From: a bacterium
GTDB taxonomy: Bacteria > SZUA-182 > DTGQ01 > JAFGSM01
Direction of reading: 5' to 3'
Length of the DNA: 28,471 nt
Assembly (NCBI GenBank): GCA_049472355.1
Contig: JBLIRP010000049.1
Location: 1 to 28,471, forward strand
The first letter of the stretch is position 1; the number at the start of each line of letters is the position of its first letter. A program made the position numbers and the translations under genes. The notes under the pieces were generated by a model, which searched no databases, was not told the DNA's origin, and was given only the letters and a program-made list of their open reading frames with translations. Below are positions 1,622 through 25,480 of this stretch, piece after piece.

Positions 1622-1810
1622 GTGAATGTAACGAGAGCAAAACTGGAAACGCTTATCAAAGAGCTTCCCGACCCAATTGACATTGAAGAACTTATGTACC
1701 GCCTTTACCTTTTACAGAAAATCGAAACCGGCGAAGTGGCCATCATGGAAGGAAAGACCCTTTCTCATGATGAAGCTATGAAAAGGTTGTCGAGGAAATG
1801 GCAGAACTGA
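1622..1810 (+). CDS. Putative antitoxin partner of the RelE/ParE toxin
   Basis: 62 aa, GTG start after GGAG. LPDPIDIEELMYRLYLLQKIETG...EGKTLSHDEAMKRLSRKW is typical of the small acidic genes found upstream of RelE/ParE. Overlaps the toxin start by 13 nt. Confidence 0.75.
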   Translation: MNVTRAKLETLIKELPDPIDIEELMYRLYLLQKIETGEVAIMEGKTLSHDEAMKRLSRKWQN

Positions 1811-2109
1811 TATGGGGCGGAGTGGCGATCTCGGATTTAGAATGTATTTATGATTACATCGCACGTGATTCTCATCATTATGCCAGGCACCAGATAGAAC
1901 GAATCTCCCATTCTGTCGAGCGTTTACGGCAGTTTCCCGAATCCGGACGAAGGCTGCCTGAATTTCCCTATCTTCCCCACCGCGAAGTACTCATTGATAA
2001 TTATCGTGTGATTTATCGCTACGCAGCGGATAGCGACCGTGTGTTCATTGTAACCGTTGCCCATGGACATCGTCTTCTTGAAAAAAGCAGCTTAAATCCA
2101 GTCAAATAA
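1798..2109 (+). CDS. Type II TA toxin, RelE/ParE family
   Basis: Motifs W...AISDLECIYDYIARDS, L..FPESGRRLPE, REVLIDNYRVIYR and IVTVAHG. Confidence 0.9.
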   Translation: MAELIWGGVAISDLECIYDYIARDSHHYARHQIERISHSVERLRQFPESGRRLPEFPYLPHREVLIDNYRVIYRYAADSDRVFIVTVAHGHRLLEKSSLNPVK

Positions 2110-3121: not shown

Positions 3122-5536
3122 CTATGGCCGGGAGGTGTATATCGTGGAGGAATAGGGGATGCAAAAGAGGGTGTCCGACTGTCCTGCAAAGATTCGGTTC
3201 TCCCCGTCCCAGTGCTCGTGTGAGTTCTTGAAGCAGAACTTGAAGTGTGCGGGTGCGTCTTGGATCACGATCCTCCACCAGTGCCCATTGTTGAAATTCC
3301 CCTCGTACTGCATCGGAAAATCCCCGGATAAGCCGTCCCATGCATGGATGAAGTAGTTGGTTGCCGGTTCGAATTCCCTGTAGTGGATGGTGATCGTTCC
3401 CCCTCCGTTCTCTTTCTCCACCCCCACCACCTGTTTCATATAGCTGTCGAAGGTGATGACGTAGGCGCCCGGCCCTGCGGTGACCGCGTAATCGGAGGGT
3501 GGATACGCCTCATCCCAGGAGTCTGCACGATGCGAGATCTTGAACCGGGGATTGTCCGGCCCGAAGGTCTGGGTGGTCTCCCACAGCCCCTCTGCGTTGA
3601 GCATCATGGGGGAGGCGCCCCAGTTGTTGGGGGTTCCCCGGAAGTACCAGATATCCGGGATGTCCACCGCATTCTCGTAGGTGGTGAATGCGCCCCCGGA
3701 ATCGGCATACCCGCCGATGTCCCCCAGGAACACCGCCTTGGAGCAGTACCCGTACAGGGTTCCCAGGCCGTAGTCGTGCCTGTTCGAGTCGGATATGGCC
3801 GGATGGGTTCCCCCGCCCATGAGGGCGTGGGCCGGGGTGCCGGAGGGGATGTCAATTCCCGAGTCCCTCAGATTGATGTGTATATTCAGGGTATCGCCGC
3901 TGAAGTTGTGGCTGACCAGGATCATCTCCCCGTAGTATTCCCTGATGATGGAGAGGGTCTTTGATTCACCCTGGAGCCCGTCCCAGGTGTTTCCCGAGCG
4001 GGTGGGCACCACGTAGGTGATACCTCCGGCAAGTGCGCGGTAGGTGTTCCTCAGCCGCAGAAGCCTCCGGTAATGGTTGAAGATGGATGCAGGGTCCGTC
4101 TCCTGCTGTTGTGCCCTGGCCCAGTCCATGGGCAGGCGGATGGGCTCGTCCCCGTCACCTGCCCCGTTTGCCATGCCTATCTCTTCACCGTAGTAGATGG
4201 CCGGATTTCCCGAGAGGAGCAAATACAGGGAGGCGACCCCCTTCATCTTCGCCGTGTTGCCGTTGAGCTGGGTGGCCACCCGGTCCCCGGCGAACCGGTC
4301 GTGGTTGCTCAGGAATATGGTGTCCTGGGTGCCGGGGGGGAGTCTCCCCTGGACGGCATACACCTCCTGCATGAGGTCAGCAGGCCGCCGCCCGTTTTTG
4401 AGGCAGGCCATGAGCCTTCCCTGGAGGTTGAAGTGGAAGGCGGTGTGGAACTCGTCCCCGTCTCCGTAATAGGCGATCATCTGATCCGCGCTCTCGGTGG
4501 GGGCCTCCGCGAGCAGGATGGCGTCCTGCTTGATGCGCTCAAGCCGTGCCCTGAGGTCCTTCCATATTTGGTGGGTCTCGGGCTGGTCCTTCTGGGTTCC
4601 CCTGCCGTTTTCCACGAGGTAGCGTACCGCGTCGCAGCGGAACCCATCCACATCCGTTTCACTGACCCAGTGGCGCATCACGGCTTCGAACTCATCCAGG
4701 AGTTCCGCCTGCGAGGCGGGTGCATTGAAATTCAGATCGGGCATGGTGGCCCCGTCGGCATCGCCGAACACGCTGTAGTAATAATCGTCGTCATGGGGCT
4801 CCCCGTTGTGGTCTCTGTCCAGGTCCGCCTGTGGATCGAGGAACCATGTCGCGCCGGAGATATCCCCGGAACGGTTTTCCTCCCAGGGGTCCGGCCACCC
4901 GAGGTCGGATGCCGACCATATGAACCAGTGATCCCGCCGCACAGCGTCGTCCGGGGAGGAGAACCAGGGGTGTTCAGAGCCGCAGTGGTTCATCACCAGG
5001 TCGAGAATCACCCGCATCCCCTTGCGGTGGGCGCCGGCTACGAGATTCCCGAGGTCGTTCATCGTTCCGTAGCGGGGTTCGATGGCGTAATAATCGGTGG
5101 TATTGTATCCGTGCTCACTCATGGCCTTGAATATGGGCATGAGCCAGATGGTCTTGACACCCAGCTTCTCCAGGTAATCGAGCCGGTTGGTCACACCCTG
5201 GAGATTGCCTCCGAAGCGGTCCACAAACACCTCGTAGATACTGGTCCGGGTGACCCACGGGGATTCGTGTTCCAGGGTGGCGGGAGAGGCCGATGCCACT
5301 CTGGATGCGGCGGCGGGGGCCGATCGTGCCTCGCTGCGTCGGCGCTCCCCGGCAAACGCATCGGGCCGGGACGGAGGGGCGCCGGTTTCACCCACCCCTG
5401 TGTCGAGGATCAAGCCTTGCTGCGTGACGACGCGTTTCCTGCAGGAGGTGAGGGAGACGGAAGAGACGCAGAAAAAAAGCAATGCCGCAAACAGGACAAT
5501 CCGGTTTTCCCACTTTTTTCTCCTACACGGTGCCAT
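3122..5536 (-). CDS. GH13 alpha-amylase family protein, probable lipoprotein, with two C-terminal starch-binding-like modules
   Basis: GH13 conserved regions DLVMNH, DGFRCDAVRY (nucleophile), EAP (acid/base), FLSNHD and IYYGEEIGM. Start moved from 5626 to the ATG at 5536, which has an AGGAGAGG RBS and gives a basic + hydrophobic + LTSC lipobox leader. C-terminal WYFRGTPNNWG and IHAWDG...WW..FCFKN..WD modules. Confidence 0.9.
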   Translation of the reverse strand: MAPCRRKKWENRIVLFAALLFFCVSSVSLTSCRKRVVTQQGLILDTGVGETGAPPSRPDAFAGERRRSEARSAPAAASRVASASPATLEHESPWVTRTSIYEVFVDRFGGNLQGVTNRLDYLEKLGVKTIWLMPIFKAMSEHGYNTTDYYAIEPRYGTMNDLGNLVAGAHRKGMRVILDLVMNHCGSEHPWFSSPDDAVRRDHWFIWSASDLGWPDPWEENRSGDISGATWFLDPQADLDRDHNGEPHDDDYYYSVFGDADGATMPDLNFNAPASQAELLDEFEAVMRHWVSETDVDGFRCDAVRYLVENGRGTQKDQPETHQIWKDLRARLERIKQDAILLAEAPTESADQMIAYYGDGDEFHTAFHFNLQGRLMACLKNGRRPADLMQEVYAVQGRLPPGTQDTIFLSNHDRFAGDRVATQLNGNTAKMKGVASLYLLLSGNPAIYYGEEIGMANGAGDGDEPIRLPMDWARAQQQETDPASIFNHYRRLLRLRNTYRALAGGITYVVPTRSGNTWDGLQGESKTLSIIREYYGEMILVSHNFSGDTLNIHINLRDSGIDIPSGTPAHALMGGGTHPAISDSNRHDYGLGTLYGYCSKAVFLGDIGGYADSGGAFTTYENAVDIPDIWYFRGTPNNWGASPMMLNAEGLWETTQTFGPDNPRFKISHRADSWDEAYPPSDYAVTAGPGAYVITFDSYMKQVVGVEKENGGGTITIHYREFEPATNYFIHAWDGLSGDFPMQYEGNFNNGHWWRIVIQDAPAHFKFCFKNSHEHWDGENRIFAGQSDTLFCIPYSSTIYTSRP

Positions 5537-6045
5537 TATGCCTCTCCTTTTTTGTCTAAGATTGAGCACAGTGCTGCCGCATCGCCGGTGTGCATCCCTT
5601 TGGCAGATGACCCTGCACATTATCACCCGATCGCCGGCAAGGGGGATTCATGAGACCCCTTCACCGAAGGTGCATTATCACCCGGTTGCAGCCCCTCTAT
5701 AATATAAGAAATCCCATGTATTGCAACACCTGCCTTTTATATTCCCGCTTAATGCCAGGCGCATAAATTCGTCGTCTTACACCTTCCCGATGCAAAGGCG
5801 GCAATTCCAATTTTTAATTGCGTCTTCGCGGGAAGAAATGTTTACGGAGCGATAGAGGGCGGCCTTGTGTAACTTTTTTCGGCGAAGCGGCGTGAACATG
5901 TCTGAGCACACTCGTTGACCAAAGATATGACATTGGAATTGGCAAGGGTGCGGGCGTTGTTATTTTGTGTCGGGTTTGTTTATAATAACGCGACATCGTT
6001 TTTTTTCATGTATCGTGCATTGAACTGCCCGGCAAGGATGGAGCA

Positions 6046-7471: not shown

Positions 7472-9043
7472 TCAGGAGGGGTCCTGTGCCCCTTTTCCGG
7501 ATGTCTGGCCCACGGGTCCCATCGGTCCGGGCGCATGCGGTTCATCCGGCGACCTTTTTTCAACCCCGCTCAATTCATTGAGGTATCGGGTGAATTCCTC
7601 CTGGTCGGGGGTATGGGCAAGTGCGATCTCATCGCATACCGCCCCGATCTCGTCTCGTCCCCGGGCATCGGGAGGGATCTGCTCTGCCCAGAGGATGAGC
7701 GCCGCAAGGAAGAGGGAGATGTCCTGTTGCTGTTCCAGGGCGATTTTCTCCTTGAAATAGGAGGCAATCCTTTGCATGGTGTTTCTGCGGATTCTCCTTG
7801 ATATCGGGAGGAGTATCGCCGCCGCAACAAGGAAGGTGAGGGCGCCTATCTGAATCCCGGGGATACGATGCCCCAGTTTTGCTGCGAACATGGGAATCGC
7901 GATGGCGAGCAATGTAAAGAGAACGAAGAGAAGGTGGATGACGCGCCGTGCGCCCCTGTCGTCCGCCTCCTCCCTCGATCCCTGGTACAGGTTGGAAAAA
8001 TAGGTAAAGAGCTTGTCCTTCTGAGCTTGCAGGGCAGAGGGTGGCCCGGGCGGGGGAGAGGTGCCGACGATATCGGGTTGTGTTTCGGCAGGGCCTTTTC
8101 GCCCCTTCACCTTGTCGTCTGCCGTCTCCTTCGTCTCTTCGGACAGGGCACCGGAAGGGGTAGGAGGCGTATCCGGCCGGGATGGAGACGATGGGGTCGG
8201 CCCGGCCCGGCGAGGGGTGACCTCGGTGATCTTAATCTCGTCGGTTTCCTGCTTCTGCTGCAACTCTTCCTGTTTTTGCTTTTTTTTAATGAACTCTATA
8301 TAGCGCGCAATGATGATGCCGCACCTGACGCATTCAGGTCCCTCCTTTTGCTTATGCCCGCATTTCGGGCAGGTCATAAGGGGTGGGGCTGCGCCTGCCC
8401 GAGGGGATGGGGGTGCGGAGGGAGGGGATGGGGAAGCGCCTGCCGAAGGGTGCGGAGGTGTGGACGATTGGGGCGAGGAAGCGCCTGTCGGAGTTTTCGG
8501 GGGAGCAGAAGCGGGGAATGAAGATGCATCTGCCGGGGCCTTTGGCGAAGTGGAAGGACGGGATGTAGATGTATCTGCCTGAGGGCGTGGAGGTGCGGAG
8601 TCCTGTGATGGGGAAGCGCCTGCCGAAGGGTGCGGTGGCGTGGATGGTTGCGGTGAAGAGGTGGAAGGTCCGGGTGCGTCTTCGCCTGCCGGAGGGGATG
8701 GGGGTGCGGAGGGATGGGATGGGGACGCGCCTGCAGGTGTCTGTTTCGGGCCGGTGGGCCGGGGTGAGGCGGGGGGAGCGGTTGTCTTCCGGGGTTCGCC
8801 GATCCCCTTTTCCGGGCGGAAGATCTTGCATTGTACCCCCGCTTGTTTGAAGGGGCCGTAGATCTTGAGCGCGGTTTGATAATCGATGTTTTCTGCGATG
8901 GTGATCGGGGCAAGGGAAAAGAGATTGTCCACCCTGCTGCGGCTCCATTTGAAGATCCTGCACAGCTCGTTTTTGACCTCCTCCAGGTCGCGTCCCTGCA
9001 AGACCTTTCCTTCAAAGATGATCTTGAAACATTTCTCAGTCAT
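7472..9043 (-). CDS. Membrane protein: small N-terminal domain, Pro/Ser/Ala repeat linker, CxxC-CxxC zinc ribbon, two C-terminal TM helices
   Basis: GGAGG RBS. N-terminal FKIIFEGKVLQGRDLEEVKNELCRIFK. Zn ribbon CPKCGHKQKEGPECVRCG. Hydrophobic VIHLLFVLFTLLAIAIPMFA and IGALTFLVAAAILLPI. Confidence 0.8.
   Translation of the reverse strand: MTEKCFKIIFEGKVLQGRDLEEVKNELCRIFKWSRSRVDNLFSLAPITIAENIDYQTALKIYGPFKQAGVQCKIFRPEKGIGEPRKTTAPPASPRPTGPKQTPAGASPSHPSAPPSPPAGEDAPGPSTSSPQPSTPPHPSAGASPSQDSAPPRPQADTSTSRPSTSPKAPADASSFPASAPPKTPTGASSPQSSTPPHPSAGASPSPPSAPPSPRAGAAPPLMTCPKCGHKQKEGPECVRCGIIIARYIEFIKKKQKQEELQQKQETDEIKITEVTPRRAGPTPSSPSRPDTPPTPSGALSEETKETADDKVKGRKGPAETQPDIVGTSPPPGPPSALQAQKDKLFTYFSNLYQGSREEADDRGARRVIHLLFVLFTLLAIAIPMFAAKLGHRIPGIQIGALTFLVAAAILLPISRRIRRNTMQRIASYFKEKIALEQQQDISLFLAALILWAEQIPPDARGRDEIGAVCDEIALAHTPDQEEFTRYLNELSGVEKRSPDEPHAPGPMGPVGQTSGKGAQDPS
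8390..8735 (-). repeat. Intragenic degenerate tandem repeats of about 45 bp (15 aa)
   Basis: Units AGASPSHPSAPPSPP, AGASPSQDSAPPRPQ, ADTSTSRPSTSPKAP, ADASSFPASAPPKTP, TGASSPQSSTPPHPS, AGASPSPPSAPPSPR. Exact 29-bp DNA copies at 8427-8455 and 8607-8635; exact 23-bp copies at 8401-8423 and 8692-8714. Confidence 0.85.
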
Positions 9044-9067: not shown

Positions 9068-9730
9068 TCATTCCCTTCCCGCATCCCCGTCTCCTATTCC
9101 CACCTTTTCCCTTATTGCGTCGGCATCGAGATCCTCGATCAGCTTGACGAGGTGGGTCCAGATCCTGTGATATCCGAACCCCCCGGTGGTCATTTCCGCT
9201 ATCGCATCCTGTTTTGACCATCCGCAGACAACGACCCGATACACCGCCACCATCACCCCGGTGCGGTCCGCCCCGTGCATACAGTGCACGAAGACCGGTG
9301 TCCGCTCCTTGTCGGTCACAATCTGCAGGAAATGCACGATATCCTTCTCTGACGGATACCACGCGCCGACCCGGATGTGCTCGTTTTCAAGCCCGGTGTC
9401 ATCGATTTCGTCCTTGTCCGAATGGAATGTACGCAGGTTTATAACGGTTTTGATCCCCAATTCCTTGAGCCGGCGCATCCCTTCAGCGGTAGGCTGGGCG
9501 CCGCGGTACAGGTCATCGCTCACCTTGTACAGGTTGGGAAGCCCCTCGTATTCGAGTGGTTGCGCCCAATGTGCCGGGCGTGGCTCTATCCCTGAATCTC
9601 CCATGGTTTCAGAAATCCCGGGAATCATACCCACAAGGAGAACCGATACAAGTACACACCCCCATATTCCGTTGAGTCCGGGAAACCATGCCTTTGTGTG
9701 ACAATTCGCGATGATTCCAGTGGATTTCAC
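9068..9730 (-). CDS. Cys-based (CX5R) dual-specificity/tyrosine phosphatase, atypical DSP type, with N-terminal hydrophobic leader
   Basis: Motifs NLYKVSDDLYRGAQP, LGIKTVINLR and PVFVHCMHGADRTG. GTG start after GGAGGGG. Hydrophobic GIWGCVLVSVLLVGMIPG. Confidence 0.9.
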   Translation of the reverse strand: MKSTGIIANCHTKAWFPGLNGIWGCVLVSVLLVGMIPGISETMGDSGIEPRPAHWAQPLEYEGLPNLYKVSDDLYRGAQPTAEGMRRLKELGIKTVINLRTFHSDKDEIDDTGLENEHIRVGAWYPSEKDIVHFLQIVTDKERTPVFVHCMHGADRTGVMVAVYRVVVCGWSKQDAIAEMTTGGFGYHRIWTHLVKLIEDLDADAIREKVGIGDGDAGRE

Positions 9731-10057: not shown

Positions 10058-10474
10058 TCATTTGCCCTCAATGGGGTACCGGGATCTCATCCACTCGTCC
10101 CAGCCTCCGGAGAGGGTGTAGACCTTTTTGAATCCCTTCGATTTGAGCCTTTGCGCCAGACCCGCACTGGTCGAAACATTCGGGGATGCGCAATAGAGGA
10201 TGATCGTATCCTCCTTCGGATACTTCTGTAACCAGGAGGTTACCTTTTCGGGCCCCTCCCGCAGGGCGCCCTTGATCATGAAGTCACTTTTTTTCCAGTC
10301 CGTTTCGGTGCGCACATCCAGAATGGTCGGATCGGTGAATTCAATAAGCACCCGGAGATCCTCTTTGGTGATTCCGGATGCTGCATCGGCTGCCATGGCC
10401 GAACATACGCTCACGGCGAGCATGAGCAGGAGGAGCGATATCCCCCTGCACCGCATGAGAGTTTGGTCTAACAT
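10058..10474 (-). CDS. Rhodanese-like domain protein with signal peptide
   Basis: Motifs ILDVR, IKGALR, IILYCASPN and GFKKVYTLSGGWDEW. Leader SLLLLMLAVSVCSAMA. Starts 3 nt after the TIM-barrel stop. Confidence 0.85.
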   Translation of the reverse strand: MLDQTLMRCRGISLLLLMLAVSVCSAMAADAASGITKEDLRVLIEFTDPTILDVRTETDWKKSDFMIKGALREGPEKVTSWLQKYPKEDTIILYCASPNVSTSAGLAQRLKSKGFKKVYTLSGGWDEWMRSRYPIEGK

Positions 10475-10477
10475 GAT

Positions 10478-11356
10478 TTATTCCCCCTCAAGGTCGTTAC
10501 TGTCCCGAGCGTGGACTGTTCCATTCCCTTGCCGGTGCTGATCGGCCATGACGAGCAGCCTCTCCCGTGCCCGATTGAGGAGTGACGGTGGATCCGGCCA
10601 CTGCTCCAGGATGATGGAGCCGGAAAAACCGCGCTTCTTCAGCCGGTCGAGGAAACCCTGAAGGCCGCTGGTATCCCGGGCTGAAGGTCCTGTAAAGACA
10701 AGAAGATGACTGTCCCTGTCCCCGAAGTTTTCGTGGAGATGGACATGGATGATCGGGACTTCCGGATCGAGCCGGTCAAAGAACCGCAGGTAGTCGTTCA
10801 CCGTCGAAGGGGAGAGGTTCGCGTGCCCCAGGTCCAGGCACATCCCTACGTGAGAGGCCTTTCGTGCCCGGGATGCGCGAAGATGGGAGAATACCCCGTT
10901 TATGTCCTCGGGTGAGGTATGGGGGGTGTTTTCGATGGCGAGACTGATCCCCATGGCAGCGGTATGCTCCATAATGTGGTCTATTGCGGGAATGAAACGT
11001 ACTGCCTCGGCGCATAGATGGATGGTGAAGAGGGTGGCGCCGATTTCACGGGCAAATGAAATCCCCTGCAGCATATGGTCATGTCCCATTGGGGTGAAGG
11101 GATCTGATCCCCCCGGCGCATGGACGGAGAGGGTTATGCCGTTGGCACGGGCGGTCTGGCTGATGGAACGGCGGGTCCGGTGGTTGATGTCGGTGATTGA
11201 AAACCCCGCGCCGTTCCCCTTCTTGTCGGGAAACCATTCGAATGCATCGAAGCCGCCGGCGACCGCATACTCGAAGGGGAGCAGGGGGTATCTGGCAGCA
11301 TACGAGGTTTGGTTGCCGATCCTGAAGGGTCTTCCTTCGCTATTGATCCCTTTCAC
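10478..11356 (-). CDS. Xylose isomerase-like / AP-endonuclease-2 family TIM-barrel metalloenzyme (sugar-phosphate isomerase/epimerase annotation class)
   Basis: Motifs GFDAFEW, LSVHAP, FTIH, LAIENT, CLDLGHAN, HVHLHENFGDRDSHL and IILE. The GTG start overlaps the last 17 nt of the dikinase gene. Confidence 0.85.
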   Translation of the reverse strand: MKGINSEGRPFRIGNQTSYAARYPLLPFEYAVAGGFDAFEWFPDKKGNGAGFSITDINHRTRRSISQTARANGITLSVHAPGGSDPFTPMGHDHMLQGISFAREIGATLFTIHLCAEAVRFIPAIDHIMEHTAAMGISLAIENTPHTSPEDINGVFSHLRASRARKASHVGMCLDLGHANLSPSTVNDYLRFFDRLDPEVPIIHVHLHENFGDRDSHLLVFTGPSARDTSGLQGFLDRLKKRGFSGSIILEQWPDPPSLLNRARERLLVMADQHRQGNGTVHARDSNDLEGE

Positions 11357-14300
11357 CCTTTCGCTCCGGGAGCCCTACCTGGGGACGCGCCTGGACCACG
11401 AAATATTCCCCGCGGGCATAGGCCCCTTCGATATCCTGGGGGCAGCCCAGGACATGCTCTGTTGCAATGCCGACCCTGGTGATTCCCAGGAGAAGGTCTC
11501 GCCTGAAATTCTCATCCTGCACCATGGGCTCGTGGGAATAGTCGAGGACCACGCTGCGGGAAGGCCTCGACAGGACGCTGTCGTAGAGCCCTGCCCCCGC
11601 GTAGCCGGCGAGGTCCTCGGCGTTTGAATCCGAGCGGAAGATGAGCCCTGTGCCGAAGATGCCGGTGCCCTTGCTCGGATATGAGAGCACCCGCGGTTCG
11701 GGATGCCCCTTGTCTGAGACGAATCCCAGTGCCCTGCCGGGGTGGTTTCCGACCAGGGTCTCGCCCAATCCCACCACCACCTCCGCATAGAGTTCATGCC
11801 TGTTCCCGGTGAAGGGATTGGCGGTGTGGATCACGAATGCGTATTCCGCCTCCACCACCTCCTGGATGAGCACCGCCATGAACAGATCCCGATGCCTCAA
11901 TCCCCATGCCCTGCGGCTCAGGTATGCCCGTTCGTTCCACTTGGACGCCCATACCCGTTTGATGCATTCCCATATATGATCACAGTCTCCCCTGAAGCGG
12001 AGCCCCGCCTCCTCCATGGTTCCCTTGAGGGAGGGCATGAACCCCTCCGGCTGATCGAGGAGCATGAGACAGGCGCGCACCTCCTGGAGGGTTTTCGCCG
12101 GGTGTCTTCCGATCCCCCGGGTGAGATCCGCGTAACGCTGCGCAATCACATGGTTTTTTCGATCGGAGAGCACCGCGTCGAATGCACCGAAGGGAAGGGC
12201 CATCGAGGCGGGTATGCGGATCCATGCAGGCAGCGCATCGGCAAGGCGTTTCAGGTTGAAGGACTTCCCCCCTACGACCGCTCTTCTAAAATATCCCAAC
12301 CCCACCGGCCGGGCAAAGGTATCCACCTGTGAAGACATATCCGGCCGGGCAAGAACAGTGTGCCGCATGCGAGGGGATACCCGTTCCCCCCTTCTTTTCT
12401 TTCCTCGCCCTTCCGCCATAAGCACCTCCCCGGATGCGGAGGAGGTGAGCCGGATGTAATGCCCTTCCAGGGCGACAATACGATCAATGGTGTCCCTGTC
12501 GTAGCAGGTGGCAAAGAGAAGCCCGGTGTTGCGTGCCCGGATTGCTATATGGGAGACACAATCGACTATGTCGGTGGTGAGAAGGGCGGTGATTCCCTCG
12601 GGGATCTCCTCCTCGCCGGTGATGCCTCGGGCAACCACTACGGTGGGGGTGGGAAACGCTTTTCCCTGGATCGATCGGAGGCGGTCCACCACCATGACGA
12701 TCCCATCTCCGCTGCCGGGGCTGATGACCTGCCAGTTCCCGAGCTCGGCCAGGGTGCGCAGCAGCGGGGTGAGGCGATGCACGAACTGCGACAGGACAAA
12801 GGCGAGTCCCCCTCGCACCACCTCCTCGCTGAACAGGTTGATGCTCCAGGCCTCGGCGCCGAGCGCATCCCCCAGCGATTCCGCCACGGGCTGGATGTGC
12901 CGGGAGAGGTCATCGATGAATACGCCGATGGCACGCTCCAGCCGCTCCAGCACGGATGCCGCCTGGAGGGACCATTCCCGGTCCATGCGGCGGTCTTCCA
13001 TGAGCCGGTCCCAATGGCGGCAGCATGCGGCGATCTCCTCATCATCCCGGATAAGGACCATGTTTTTGAGCACCAGGCCGATGATCTCGACAAGCTGGTT
13101 TCCGTCGAAGTCATGGTGGAGGTTTCGCTCGGCAGCCGAGCGCAGGAGCCCTTGCAGTGCGAGGTCGAGAAAGAGAAGATCGCGGATCTGTTCGGGATTT
13201 CCTTTCATATGCGGGGACTCGTGGATATGGGTGCGGACCGTGGTGATTCGGGAGAGGAGGTCCGTCAGGGAGGCGGCTGTGGTATCCCGATGGCGCCGGA
13301 TAAACCGGAGCTGGTCGTTCGTCCTTTTATCGAGGTGCGGTTCGGCTGATTCCATGGCATTTTCGAGGTCGGTAGCCGAGTACACCGATTTGAGGATCTT
13401 CAGGTATCCCTCGAAGTCCTCGATCAGCGCCTCCTGTATATCCGGATAAAACTCCGGCTCTGTGCGAATGGGCCGCTCGAAGCCCTCCAGGCGACTTCTT
13501 CCGACCCCGCCCTCATCGAGTGTTGCATAGAACAGGTCCAGATCCCCGCCGCTTCTGAGGAAGGCAAGATATGCCTCGCTGATGACGATGTCATCCGGTG
13601 TGGCATTGTTGTGGAGCTTCTGGTGCCACTCCTCCAGAAAATTGCCGGCCACCTCCTTGATCCGGTGCCTGTGCATGATATGGAGGAATTCGTCCCGTAT
13701 GCGCTGGCCCTCTCCACCCCTGCCCACGGTGGTCATGATCAGACGCATCCATTCGCGCGTCTTCGGTCCGCCCTTGCAGAAGTTGTCCGCAAGCCTCAGG
13801 GTAAGCCGGTCCAGGGCATGGCTCAGCTCCCGGGGTTGGGTGTTGTAGCTGCGTTGCCAGGTCAGTTGCCGTATGGCGGAAAGGCGCAGCCACACGTAGA
13901 GCAGGGCCAATCCCTCGATGTCTTCACCCACCCGCTCCACGAGGTCGAAGGCGAGATTGTACCGGTGCATCAGCGACCAGGAGCCGCTCCTCGTTTCGGA
14001 ATGGATGATTTCAGCGGCAATACCGGAAAGCAAAGGGGATGGGCCCGACGACGACTGATACGATATGTCACGGAGGGGGATGGAGAAATTGCGGCCGTTG
14101 TTCCTGATCCACTGTCCCGTATCGGGCTGCCACAGCAGGAAGGAGATGCCCTGTGGCGCATGTGCCCTTCTGAAGTCCAGGCGGATTCGATTGATCCCCT
14201 CCCGCTCGGAAAAGGGGGTCCGGGCGGCGGATCGCTTAAACAGGGTGGTGCCGGGAGGGCGTATGGAGGGAGCGGGCAGGGACCATTCATCCCGATGATT

Positions 14301-14861
14301 GCGCCGCGTCACGCCCCAGTGGAGGATAAGGGGGCCGGGCACGTTGGTCACCAGGGTTACCCGCACGACGTCCTCCTCACGGGTGACCGCACCTGCCAGA
14401 TTGCCCTCCTCGAATCGGTAGAGGTGCTCGAACATCACGGCTTCCTGAGCGATCTCCTCTTTGAGGACATCGAAGGGGGAGGGCGAGACCTTGATGGCGG
14501 GCAATTCGATGCGGTAATTCTCTCCGTTGTTGTTATCCCAGGATTCCTCCTCCGGAAAGAAGAGGGCGAAATCGATGAGGGAGAAGTCCGGGGAACGAGG
14601 GAGCCGAATGCGGATGCGTCCCTCCCCGTTATCGAGACTGAAGGGGGTTTGCACCGCGTCCGGGCCGATCTGCCGGGTTCCCTCGGGCCAGTGGGTGCGT
14701 GGCGGAATCCTCCATGGTGAGTGGGGATGACGGCTGAGCCCCCAGTGAAGGAGGCAGTGCCTCCTCGGATTCAACCGCAGAAGCACCTCGATCCCGTGGG
14801 CGGCAATGCGCTTTTCCACATGGAGACTGAGGCCCTTCCCCGTTTTTATTTCTTCAGTCAC
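11340..14861 (-). CDS. gwd: Alpha-glucan, water dikinase (plant GWD1/R1/SEX1-type): 2x CBM45, central GWD domain, phospho-His domain, PPDK-type nucleotide-binding domain
   Basis: Two LLHWG/ILHWG...W..P....P.GT....A..TPF...W..NNG.N(Y/F) modules. Central WLRLSAIRQLTWQRSYNTQPRELSHALDRLT, LIMTTVGRGGEGQRIRDE and EEWHQKLHNNATPDDIVISEA. GEEEIPEG and DCVSHIAIRARN (catalytic His). C-terminal VWASKWNERAY, MAVLIQEV, YAFVIHTANP, GLGETLVG, FRSDSNAEDLAGYAGAGLYDSV, PQDIEG and VVQARPQV. Likely start is the GTG at 14861 (AAGGATAAGGGAA upstream); the ORF track starts at 14939. Confidence 0.92.
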   Translation of the reverse strand: MTEEIKTGKGLSLHVEKRIAAHGIEVLLRLNPRRHCLLHWGLSRHPHSPWRIPPRTHWPEGTRQIGPDAVQTPFSLDNGEGRIRIRLPRSPDFSLIDFALFFPEEESWDNNNGENYRIELPAIKVSPSPFDVLKEEIAQEAVMFEHLYRFEEGNLAGAVTREEDVVRVTLVTNVPGPLILHWGVTRRNHRDEWSLPAPSIRPPGTTLFKRSAARTPFSEREGINRIRLDFRRAHAPQGISFLLWQPDTGQWIRNNGRNFSIPLRDISYQSSSGPSPLLSGIAAEIIHSETRSGSWSLMHRYNLAFDLVERVGEDIEGLALLYVWLRLSAIRQLTWQRSYNTQPRELSHALDRLTLRLADNFCKGGPKTREWMRLIMTTVGRGGEGQRIRDEFLHIMHRHRIKEVAGNFLEEWHQKLHNNATPDDIVISEAYLAFLRSGGDLDLFYATLDEGGVGRSRLEGFERPIRTEPEFYPDIQEALIEDFEGYLKILKSVYSATDLENAMESAEPHLDKRTNDQLRFIRRHRDTTAASLTDLLSRITTVRTHIHESPHMKGNPEQIRDLLFLDLALQGLLRSAAERNLHHDFDGNQLVEIIGLVLKNMVLIRDDEEIAACCRHWDRLMEDRRMDREWSLQAASVLERLERAIGVFIDDLSRHIQPVAESLGDALGAEAWSINLFSEEVVRGGLAFVLSQFVHRLTPLLRTLAELGNWQVISPGSGDGIVMVVDRLRSIQGKAFPTPTVVVARGITGEEEIPEGITALLTTDIVDCVSHIAIRARNTGLLFATCYDRDTIDRIVALEGHYIRLTSSASGEVLMAEGRGKKRRGERVSPRMRHTVLARPDMSSQVDTFARPVGLGYFRRAVVGGKSFNLKRLADALPAWIRIPASMALPFGAFDAVLSDRKNHVIAQRYADLTRGIGRHPAKTLQEVRACLMLLDQPEGFMPSLKGTMEEAGLRFRGDCDHIWECIKRVWASKWNERAYLSRRAWGLRHRDLFMAVLIQEVVEAEYAFVIHTANPFTGNRHELYAEVVVGLGETLVGNHPGRALGFVSDKGHPEPRVLSYPSKGTGIFGTGLIFRSDSNAEDLAGYAGAGLYDSVLSRPSRSVVLDYSHEPMVQDENFRRDLLLGITRVGIATEHVLGCPQDIEGAYARGEYFVVQARPQVGLPERKGERDQ

Positions 14862-15036
14862 TTCCCTTATCCTTATGATTCCTTTGGTTTTTTGGCATAC
14901 AAAACCATTTCGCACATATCCCGGATGACGGCCGTGCAAGGGTATACGAAGTCCGAGGAATGACGGAATCGCATTTATTCTATAGCAGCGGAAAAGGAAA
15001 AGTCCAGCATGAAAGACGCAAGAAACAGCACAGGTT

Positions 15037-24896: not shown

Positions 24897-25232
24897 TCAA
24901 TAGGGCATCTTCTCAGCGGGCCTTCGCTCGGGCACGTACCGGTGAGGGATCCTTCCCTCGTTCCATTCCTTGGATACATAGAGATTGCAGTAGCAGCTCC
25001 CGTACTCCTCCACATCCGGGGCACGGTATACGCAGGGACAGATGATATCCTTGTCCTTGTCGCGGTCTCCGGACGCGAGCCTGCACGGGCAGCACATGTA
25101 CCCGTAGCGTTTCTTGTTCACCAGCAACCCCTCCAGGAGATCGAAGGTCCTCTGCCTATCCTTGTTGAAAAGATACCCCTTGGGCTCCTGGACCCGTTTC
25201 AGCATCTCATGGAGTTTTTCAACCTCGCTCAT
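24897..25232 (-). CDS. Ferredoxin:thioredoxin reductase catalytic-subunit-like protein (4Fe-4S)
   Basis: RYGYMCCPCRL...DIICPCVYR...YGSCYCNLY. True start is the ATG at 25232, overlapping the glutaredoxin TGA; the ORF-track extension to 25406 is out-of-frame glutaredoxin sequence. Confidence 0.92.
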   Translation of the reverse strand: MSEVEKLHEMLKRVQEPKGYLFNKDRQRTFDLLEGLLVNKKRYGYMCCPCRLASGDRDKDKDIICPCVYRAPDVEEYGSCYCNLYVSKEWNEGRIPHRYVPERRPAEKMPY

Positions 25233-25480
25233 TGACTCAGTGCCTCCCTGATCGCCTCTTCGTTGAATCCCACAATGACCTCGTCCCCGATGAGGATGGT
25301 GGGAAAGGTGCACCTGGGATTCACCCGTTTTACCTCCTCGATGACGGCCTGTCTCTCCTTTCCCTCCAGGAGGTCCACATCCGTATAGTCGTAGCGCACA
25401 TTGCATTCATTCAGGAACTTCTTGGCTGCATTGCAGTGGCTGCAAGTGCTGAGGGTGTAGATCCTTACCGGTTTCTGCAT
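25229..25480 (-). CDS. Glutaredoxin (NrdH/YruB-like)
   Basis: IYTLSTCSHC, cis-Pro TFPT and VIVGF. Confidence 0.92.
   Translation of the reverse strand: MQKPVRIYTLSTCSHCNAAKKFLNECNVRYDYTDVDLLEGKERQAVIEEVKRVNPRCTFPTILIGDEVIVGFNEEAIREALSQ

Follow-up and report, generated by a model that had tools for sequence, protein, structure and literature searches.

A metallo-TIM-barrel encoded behind a bacterial alpha-glucan, water dikinase is a candidate phosphoglucan phosphatase

Results

A TIM-barrel gene overlaps the end of a bacterial GWD gene

The window, i.e. the whole stretch of 28,471 nucleotides analysed here, carries on its minus strand the gene of a TIM-barrel protein (barrel 1) that overlaps the end of a gene for an alpha-glucan, water dikinase (GWD) homologue. 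The following features are of relevance.

10478..11356, minus strand: barrel 1 gene, a stand-alone endonuclease IV-type (beta/alpha)8 metallo-barrel and candidate phosphoglucan phosphatase
11340..14939, minus strand: homologue of GWD1-type alpha-glucan, water dikinase, an ORF of 1199 codons, assigned by its domains and by similarity to the potato enzyme
11340..11356, minus strand: 17 nt shared by the end of GWD and the start of barrel 1
11364..11367, minus strand: Shine-Dalgarno-like GGAG, 7 nt before the barrel 1 GTG
10058..10474, minus strand: rhodanese-like gene with a hydrophobic N-terminus, 3 nt downstream of barrel 1
9068..9730, minus strand: CX5R phosphatase gene with a hydrophobic N-terminus, two genes downstream of barrel 1
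7472-9043, minus strand: 523-aa protein, rich in Pro/Ser/Ala over a long repeat region, no Pfam match
3122-5626, minus strand: GH13 alpha-amylase-like gene whose product has a lipoprotein-like hydrophobic leader and extra C-terminal domains
25229-25480, minus strand: glutaredoxin-like ORF, recognised by eye
~24897-25230, minus strand: ORF resembling the catalytic subunit of ferredoxin-thioredoxin reductase (CPC/CxC motifs, by eye), following the glutaredoxin-like ORF
1798-2109, plus strand: ORF of toxin-antitoxin type (ParE/RelE-like, by eye) within low-GC sequence

The barrel 1 ORF encodes 292 aa from a GTG start on the minus strand. As originally predicted, this start lies inside the last codons of GWD, whose ORF ends at 11340, and the two genes are likely to be translationally coupled through their overlap. 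A same-genus homologue with 84% identity has its start codon at the same position, as ATG. Since a sequence search returned 1284 homologues of similar length and the AlphaFold model has a pLDDT of 91.7, the ORF is not a chance one. The predicted absence of a signal peptide also held: the N-terminus has no hydrophobic stretch, with a best 15-residue Kyte-Doolittle mean of 0.99 compared with 2.5-2.8 in three neighbouring genes, where hydropathy stands in for a dedicated signal-peptide predictor. Judged in this way, barrel 1 is of cytoplasmic character. A scan for promoters and terminators returned no more signals than were found in shuffles. In one soil metatranscriptome, contigs cover parts of the GWD, rhodanese and phosphatase genes of the window and none was found over 10398-11253, the barrel gene body; such contigs prove neither transcription nor its absence.

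The GWD ORF contains, in this order, two PF23166 domains, PF22973 and PF01326, a layout of CBM45-like N-terminal domains followed by central, phospho-histidine and ATP-binding domains as in GWD1. Its 5' end was set as that of the longest ORF, and the real start may lie slightly later. The central domain of potato GWD1 is matched at E 2e-81, and His797 is invariant in 43 aligned homologues. By these sequence features the protein is a GWD1 homologue, and by analogy to the plant enzymes the bacterial GWD would phosphorylate alpha-glucan at C6. A second, shorter class of GWD paralogues (~35% identity), which lacks the N-terminal binding domains, occurs in the window's order, with one member in the window's own genome (L081:5455-7837, contig C34) and others at L094, L085, L089, L091, L095 and L096. 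Neither a barrel nor glucan-related neighbours were seen beside these shorter genes.

The CX5R phosphatase, the rhodanese and the GH13 amylase of the window were considered as conserved partners and rejected, as, among all loci examined, their close homologues were found solely at the same-genus locus L001. All three have hydrophobic N-termini, and the GH13 protein is, from its leader, likely to be exported. In the 523-aa protein a zinc-ribbon-like CxxC motif was noted, and two hydrophobic segments lie at its C-terminus. Plant GWD is redox-regulated; the glutaredoxin-like and reductase-like ORFs of the window lie at 25229-25480 and ~24897-25230.

Barrel 1 belongs to PF01261 and carries the ligand set of endonuclease IV

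Barrel 1 is a member of PF01261, the superfamily of AP endonuclease 2 and xylose-isomerase-like TIM barrels. This is its sole Pfam domain, matched at E 2e-21 with 77.2 bits against a gathering cut-off of 31.1. The AlphaFold (AF2) model is a (beta/alpha)8 barrel, and its best fold match is MJ1311 (PDB 3wqo; Z 25.9, rmsd 2.4, 241 residues aligned). Ranks 2-10 are nearly tied at Z 21.9-22.7, with an AP endonuclease (22.7) and TTHB071 (22.5) intermixed with isomerases, so that the fold alone cannot decide between a phosphoesterase and an isomerase. MJ1311 is also the best sequence match (profile E 1e-13). MJ1311 and TTHB071 (PDB 3ayt) differ from barrel 1 in sharing ~22% identity with it and in being orphan barrels with no known link to glucans. 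MJ1311 reportedly keeps the nine ligands and has no DNA groove. TTHB071 is said to bind zinc and to lack AP-endonuclease activity, small phosphate esters such as FMN having been proposed as its substrates.

Nine putative metal ligands were identified in barrel 1: H79, H113, E142, D175, H178, H206, D215, H217 and E251. The original prediction of a full set of ligand motifs was correct for ENT (E142), DLGH (D175/H178), HVHLHEN (H206), DSH (D215/H217) and E251, but it had overlooked H79 and H113. We aligned 240 homologues, namely the 120 best of the 1284 of similar length and the 120 best of 412 long ones; eight of the nine residues are invariant in all of them, and H113 is kept in 239. The nine columns correspond to H69, H109, E145, D179, H182, H216, D229, H231 and E261 of E. 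coli Nfo, which we take to be the numbers of its ligands, the residue identities having been confirmed in the K-12 sequence. Nine catalytic residues are recognised for endonuclease IV in the consulted part of an earlier study (PMC2770678). When the E. coli K-12 sugar enzymes were aligned, UlaE and YcjR matched five of the nine positions each and FrlC seven. The window copy departs from its family at two other positions, having G at W82 (Trp in 181/240 homologues) and T at N111 (Asn in 228/240). As judged from the alignment, barrel 1 carries the complete three-metal-type ligand set of endonuclease IV.

The family has a sharp edge, at which full-length profile scores drop from ~200-250 bits to ~120, and it fits none of the characterised relatives. 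Among 111 aligned members, the CbiR model NF041277 is the best NCBIfam match in every case, always below its cut-off; the two Nfo models match 15 and 11 members weakly (best E 2e-7), and two epimerase models match two and one, also weakly. Nfo was rejected as the identity of barrel 1, as it has no TIGR00587 or NF002198 match at E 0.01 and the window's genome has a separate true Nfo with 44% identity to that of E. coli. Nfo itself (PDB 1qtw) resembles barrel 1 in fold (Z 21.2, rmsd 3.2, 248 residues aligned) and in the nine ligand positions. It differs in sequence (16% identity), in gene context, that of barrel 1 being glucan-related, and in R37 and Y72, presumably DNA contacts, which the barrel does not keep. 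CbiR was rejected at 39.3 bits against a cut-off of 105: the recurring neighbours of the barrel are glucan genes, and no cobamide genes were seen among them. CbiR does share the superfamily and, in the part of its description available to us (PMC7733943), offers a precedent for a phosphoester substrate other than DNA. An identity as UlaE, FrlC, YcjR or a DTE/DPE-type epimerase was rejected on the few model matches and on the nine positions kept by the barrel family against five to seven in those enzymes. A SEX4-, LSF2- or laforin-type identity was dismissed as well, barrel 1 having PF01261 alone, a TIM-barrel fold and no CX5R domain. Grouping with true Nfo or with characterised epimerases had been named as an outcome that would refute the partner role; by ligand alignment and model scores, the homologues belong to neither.

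The barrel is coupled and fused to glucan dikinases

An analysis of fusion and co-occurrence with GWD and glycogen genes had been suggested for this barrel. We examined 80 GTDB loci from Desulfobacterota, Nitrospirota, Verrucomicrobiota, Scalindua and others. In 55 of them the gene directly upstream of the barrel is GWD, and in 49 of the 80 it lies within 150 nt. An in-frame fusion of the barrel to a dikinase resembling phosphoglucan, water dikinase (PWD) occurs in 55 loci as well, and 72 of the 80 have the upstream GWD, the fusion or both. A search among longer proteins gave the 412 long homologues. In the best 120 of these, 101 consist of the barrel and a full PWD-like dikinase (five of them with a second barrel at the C-terminus), 18 of the barrel and the PWD-like central domain only, some being truncated by their contigs, and one of the barrel and a GH13 domain. 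The fullest gene order is GWD, barrel-PWD, second barrel, GH13, DUF4912, GH57 branching enzyme and glycogen synthase; genes for glycogen synthase, GH57, GH13, GlgB, GlgP and GlgX recur around the barrel loci. The glycogen genes of the window's genome lie on contigs other than that of the barrel.

The PWD-like dikinase carries the JGI label 'phosphoglucan, water dikinase' and forms a clade separate from the GWD1 type; it matches the central domain of potato GWD1, the plant sequence used for comparison, only at E 7e-5. Fused and free barrels interleave on a quick tree (14-15 changes, at least four forced), so that splitting or loss has happened several times independently and the two-gene form of the window is one such case, with no direction implied.

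Several unusual architectures were observed. The loci L005, L006, L036 and L061 make up a clade whose barrels are joined to the PWD-like central domain alone, and the His and ATP domains of the dikinase were not found in the genomes concerned. At L065 (genome G039, contig C65) barrel 1 occurs twice, fused to the PWD-like dikinase in one case and immediately following GWD in the other. A giant protein of 5557 aa (P0312), too long for the family scan, has a barrel domain near residues 3767-3978. Furthermore, an ESM Atlas cluster of 50 proteins joins a PF01261 barrel (TM 0.75 to barrel 1) to a low-molecular-weight phosphotyrosine phosphatase domain.

Barrel and GWD are inherited together

Fifty of the 80 locus genomes, picked mainly where the locus missed some of the parts, were searched. 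A GWD1-type gene is present in 46, two more have a barrel-PWD fusion, and in two no dikinase was found. In addition, we drew 920 genomes from four phyla, not selected for the barrel and with the centre genome of each draw excluded. Pooled, 20 genomes have barrel and GWD, one the barrel only, four GWD only and 895 neither. In the phylum of the L043 genome (n=200; the fusion protein served as barrel query and two misses were rechecked by profile) there are 11 genomes with GWD and nine with the barrel, none of the latter without GWD. In that of the L026 genome (n=240), six have GWD, two of these as fragments, and four the barrel, each time directly behind GWD. The phylum of the L065 genome (n=240) gave eight with the barrel, seven with GWD and seven with both. 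The Verrucomicrobia-centred draw (phylum of the L037 genome) had 0/240 for either gene and is therefore uninformative. Related genomes are not independent in such counts, for which reason we do not rely on the pooled Fisher test (p 4e-36). In six of the 20 genomes with both genes, barrel and GWD lie at distant sites; these six are probably one or two lineages.

The association has exceptions on both sides. At least four near-complete genomes, G053 and G054 from the window's order as well as G207 and G249, have a GWD1-type gene without a barrel, so the barrel is not an obligatory partner. A GH13 gene lies directly behind GWD in three of these four, in G249 behind one of two GWDs. Conversely, a barrel without any dikinase found occurs in G031 and G032, both times beside glucan-degrading genes, and in G981, a single contig of 4.8 Mb. 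The G981 barrel (L111:9587-10432) has Tyr at the position of H113, no glucan neighbours and a place behind mutL. The original prediction had named the barrel as the best candidate for a dedicated partner of GWD, and its close homologues do occur almost only with GWD or PWD-like dikinases, often fused to the latter. The barrel family is tied to glucan dikinases by coupling, fusion and co-inheritance.

A second barrel accompanies the PWD-like gene

The search detected a PWD-like part in 28 of the 50 genomes, and a second barrel in 23 of these 28 and in none of the other 22. Counted as independent pairs, the joint loss of PWD and second barrel comes to three pairs only (p 0.25). G003 and G023 retain the second barrel, with no more of the PWD-like gene found than its N-terminal half. 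No Pfam family matches the second barrel, and its sequence gave nothing meaningful in the PDB; it matches barrel 1 by profile at a probability of 95%, has a similar set of His, Asp and Glu residues and belongs to the same fold class (Z 19.6). It measures ~350 aa (L015:3757-4827 and 27 aligned homologues, A2), lies behind the PWD-like dikinase and is sometimes fused to it or to GH13. Its ESM Atlas clusters are commonest in Actinomycetota. Neither the PWD-like gene nor the second barrel was found in the window's genome, which is 87.5% complete, or in a same-genus genome that is 97% complete.

A CX5R phosphatase may take the place of the barrel in one family

We sampled 11 further genomes of the window's phylum that are at least 90% complete. 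Both barrels are absent from all five genomes of one family (f2) of the window's order. These genomes have a divergent dikinase (PF23166, PF22973 and PF01326), sister to the PWD-like clade in a FastTree phylogeny, and the gene directly behind it encodes a CX5R dual-specificity phosphatase whose N-terminal domain of 130 residues is of no known family. The pair was also present in all three metagenome contigs found. Searches of 11 genomes with a barrel, and of G207 and G249, did not turn up this phosphatase. Among solved structures it is closest to protein phosphatases, with laforin at E 0.001 only; by its sequence and position it is a candidate for a bacterial laforin- or SEX4-like enzyme. The pairs were located at L088:7499-11880, L090:6551-10596, L092:6424-10767, L093, L121 and L124-L126, where a conserved gene of ~410 aa comes next. 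The data thus hint at a slot behind the glucan dikinase that is filled either by a metal barrel or by a CX5R enzyme of the eukaryotic glucan-phosphatase class. This displacement is a hint since it concerns a single lineage, and it is weakened by the fact that the f2 phosphatase follows a PWD-related dikinase and not a GWD1-type gene.

Discussion

In plants and algae, starch is phosphorylated by GWD (EC 2.7.9.4) and PWD (EC 2.7.9.5) and dephosphorylated by glucan phosphatases, the class of SEX4, LSF2 and laforin. GWD phosphorylates C6 and PWD C3, as stated in the accessible parts of two papers (PMC12892837, PMC13553574). From the portion of a 2025 article at hand (PMC13011383), glucan phosphate blocks exo-acting degradation and has to be removed, and all known glucan phosphatases are dual-specificity phosphatases. 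The bacterial loci resemble this system in the GWD1-type dikinase architecture, in a second, PWD-like dikinase in many relatives, in the alpha-glucan gene context and in a predicted phosphate-removing partner. They differ in that this partner is a metal barrel, whereas the known glucan phosphatases are all of the CX5R dual-specificity type (same article, same portion), and in the fusion of the barrel to the PWD-like enzyme in relatives. The window's genome differs further from the plant system in that no PWD-like gene was found in it.

Prokaryotes are said to be without known glucan phosphorylation machinery in the available text of a 2026 review (PMC13666283). Lateral transfer of GWD to some bacteria was raised in 2018 (PMC6260743, legend of Fig. 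9, the part seen). A 2026 preprint (10.64898/2026.09.25.754361), as far as its accessible text goes, presents GWD as a hallmark feature of starch in eukaryotes, and its supplementary GWD tree may hold bacterial sequences. The paper on the potato GWD1 structure contains neither 'bacteri' nor 'prokaryot', and in the full-text literature, mostly outside subscription journals, we found no description of a barrel partner or of a bacterial GWD/PWD operon. Bacterial GWD has hence been noted before, and the barrel partner as a glucan phosphatase is not yet described in the literature covered.

We are moderately confident, from sequence and context, that barrel 1 is a metal-dependent phosphoglucan phosphatase, a bacterial functional counterpart of SEX4 and laforin. 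In such a system, GWD would put phosphate on the storage alpha-glucan and barrel 1 would remove it from the glucan or from cut maltodextrins, its three metals presumably activating water against the glucan-bound phosphate monoester. This reading draws on the nine ligands, the preference for the CbiR model, the MJ1311 fold, the dikinase fusion, the gene context, the co-inheritance and the possible CX5R replacement in f2, and on the need to remove glucan phosphate for exo-acting degradation. The original prediction had left the enzyme class open between isomerase and phosphoesterase; ligands and model scores favour the phosphoesterase and disfavour the isomerase.

Several points count against a phosphatase. 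The shared metal site leaves the substrate open, as Nfo cuts DNA and CbiR acts on cobamides. The free-standing barrel has no glucan-binding module, and a phosphatase fused to a kinase might run a futile cycle. Some genomes have GWD and no barrel, G207 and G249 lacking the alternative CX5R phosphatase as well, and the barrel was found without a dikinase in G031, G032 and G981. To these are added the single-lineage displacement, the weak pairing of PWD and second barrel, and the changes W82G and N111T in the window copy.

The same ligands and context would also fit a phosphatase or phosphoesterase for products released by glucan hydrolysis (glucose-6-P, glucose-3-P, maltose phosphates), which we regard as unlikely. 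The GH13 fusion (P0158, L043) and the GH13 genes often found behind the barrel, the barrels beside glucan-degrading genes where no dikinase was found (L047, L049) and the lack of a binding module in the free form all agree with small substrates. On the other hand, fusion to the N-terminus of the PWD-like enzyme would keep the barrel on the polymer, the central domain alone is retained in 18 of the best 120 long homologues (some truncated by their contigs), and glucose-6-P is used directly by cells.

It is rather improbable that barrel 1 acts on the dikinase itself, for instance by discharging the phospho-histidine and so regulating GWD or PWD. The tight coupling to GWD (within 150 nt in 49/80 loci), the PWD-like fusion and the presence of a barrel at each dikinase of G039 would suit a regulator; the six genomes in which barrel and GWD are unlinked and the three with a barrel and no dikinase found argue against one, and no protein substrate is known for the superfamily. 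We give an equally small chance to a phosphate reader with weak or no catalytic activity, which would target the PWD-like dikinase to pre-phosphorylated glucan. The barrel does occupy the N-terminus of the PWD-like protein, where plant PWD has its CBM20, and a related dikinase class has a PF23166 domain at the same position; plant PWD moreover requires GWD-primed glucan, according to the consulted sections of PMC12892837. A mere reader fits poorly with the invariance of the nine ligands and with the intact free barrel in the 22 of 50 genomes, the window's included, where no PWD-like gene was found. We consider it least probable that barrel 1 isomerises or epimerises sugars or sugar phosphates from glucan breakdown. 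The source labels ('sugar phosphate isomerase/epimerase'), the isomerases and epimerases at Z 21-22.6 in the fold search and the 7/9 ligand positions of FrlC point that way, but the labels derive from the Pfam family, epimerase models match one or two of 111 members, UlaE and YcjR lack four of the nine positions invariant in the barrel family, and GWD chemistry presents no obvious need for an epimerase.

If barrel 1 is a phosphoglucan phosphatase, its likelier target would be the C6 mark, since GWD is still accompanied by barrel 1 where the PWD-like gene and the second barrel are absent. More speculatively, barrel 1 might serve the C6 mark of GWD and the second barrel the C3 mark of the PWD-like enzyme. 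It may also be speculated that a barrel fused to PWD could exchange a C6 mark for a C3 mark. We put forward tentatively, as a possibility below the phosphatase assignment in confidence, that many anaerobic or chemolithotrophic bacteria possess two dikinases and two three-metal phosphatases of the EndoIV fold, one per mark, interchangeable with a CX5R enzyme in one lineage, a system that maybe bears on the origin of the plant dikinases.

Should the phosphatase reading be true, bacteria would have a complete glucan-phosphate cycle in which the erasing step is carried out by a second, independent chemistry, and the barrels would form a class of glucan phosphatases unrelated to SEX4 and laforin. 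A function would then be assigned to a large set of proteins that are now mislabelled as sugar isomerases, and tools for the engineering of starch phosphate might be gained. Being small and soluble, the barrels are testable enzymes for the question of phosphorylation and semi-crystallinity in bacterial storage glucans.
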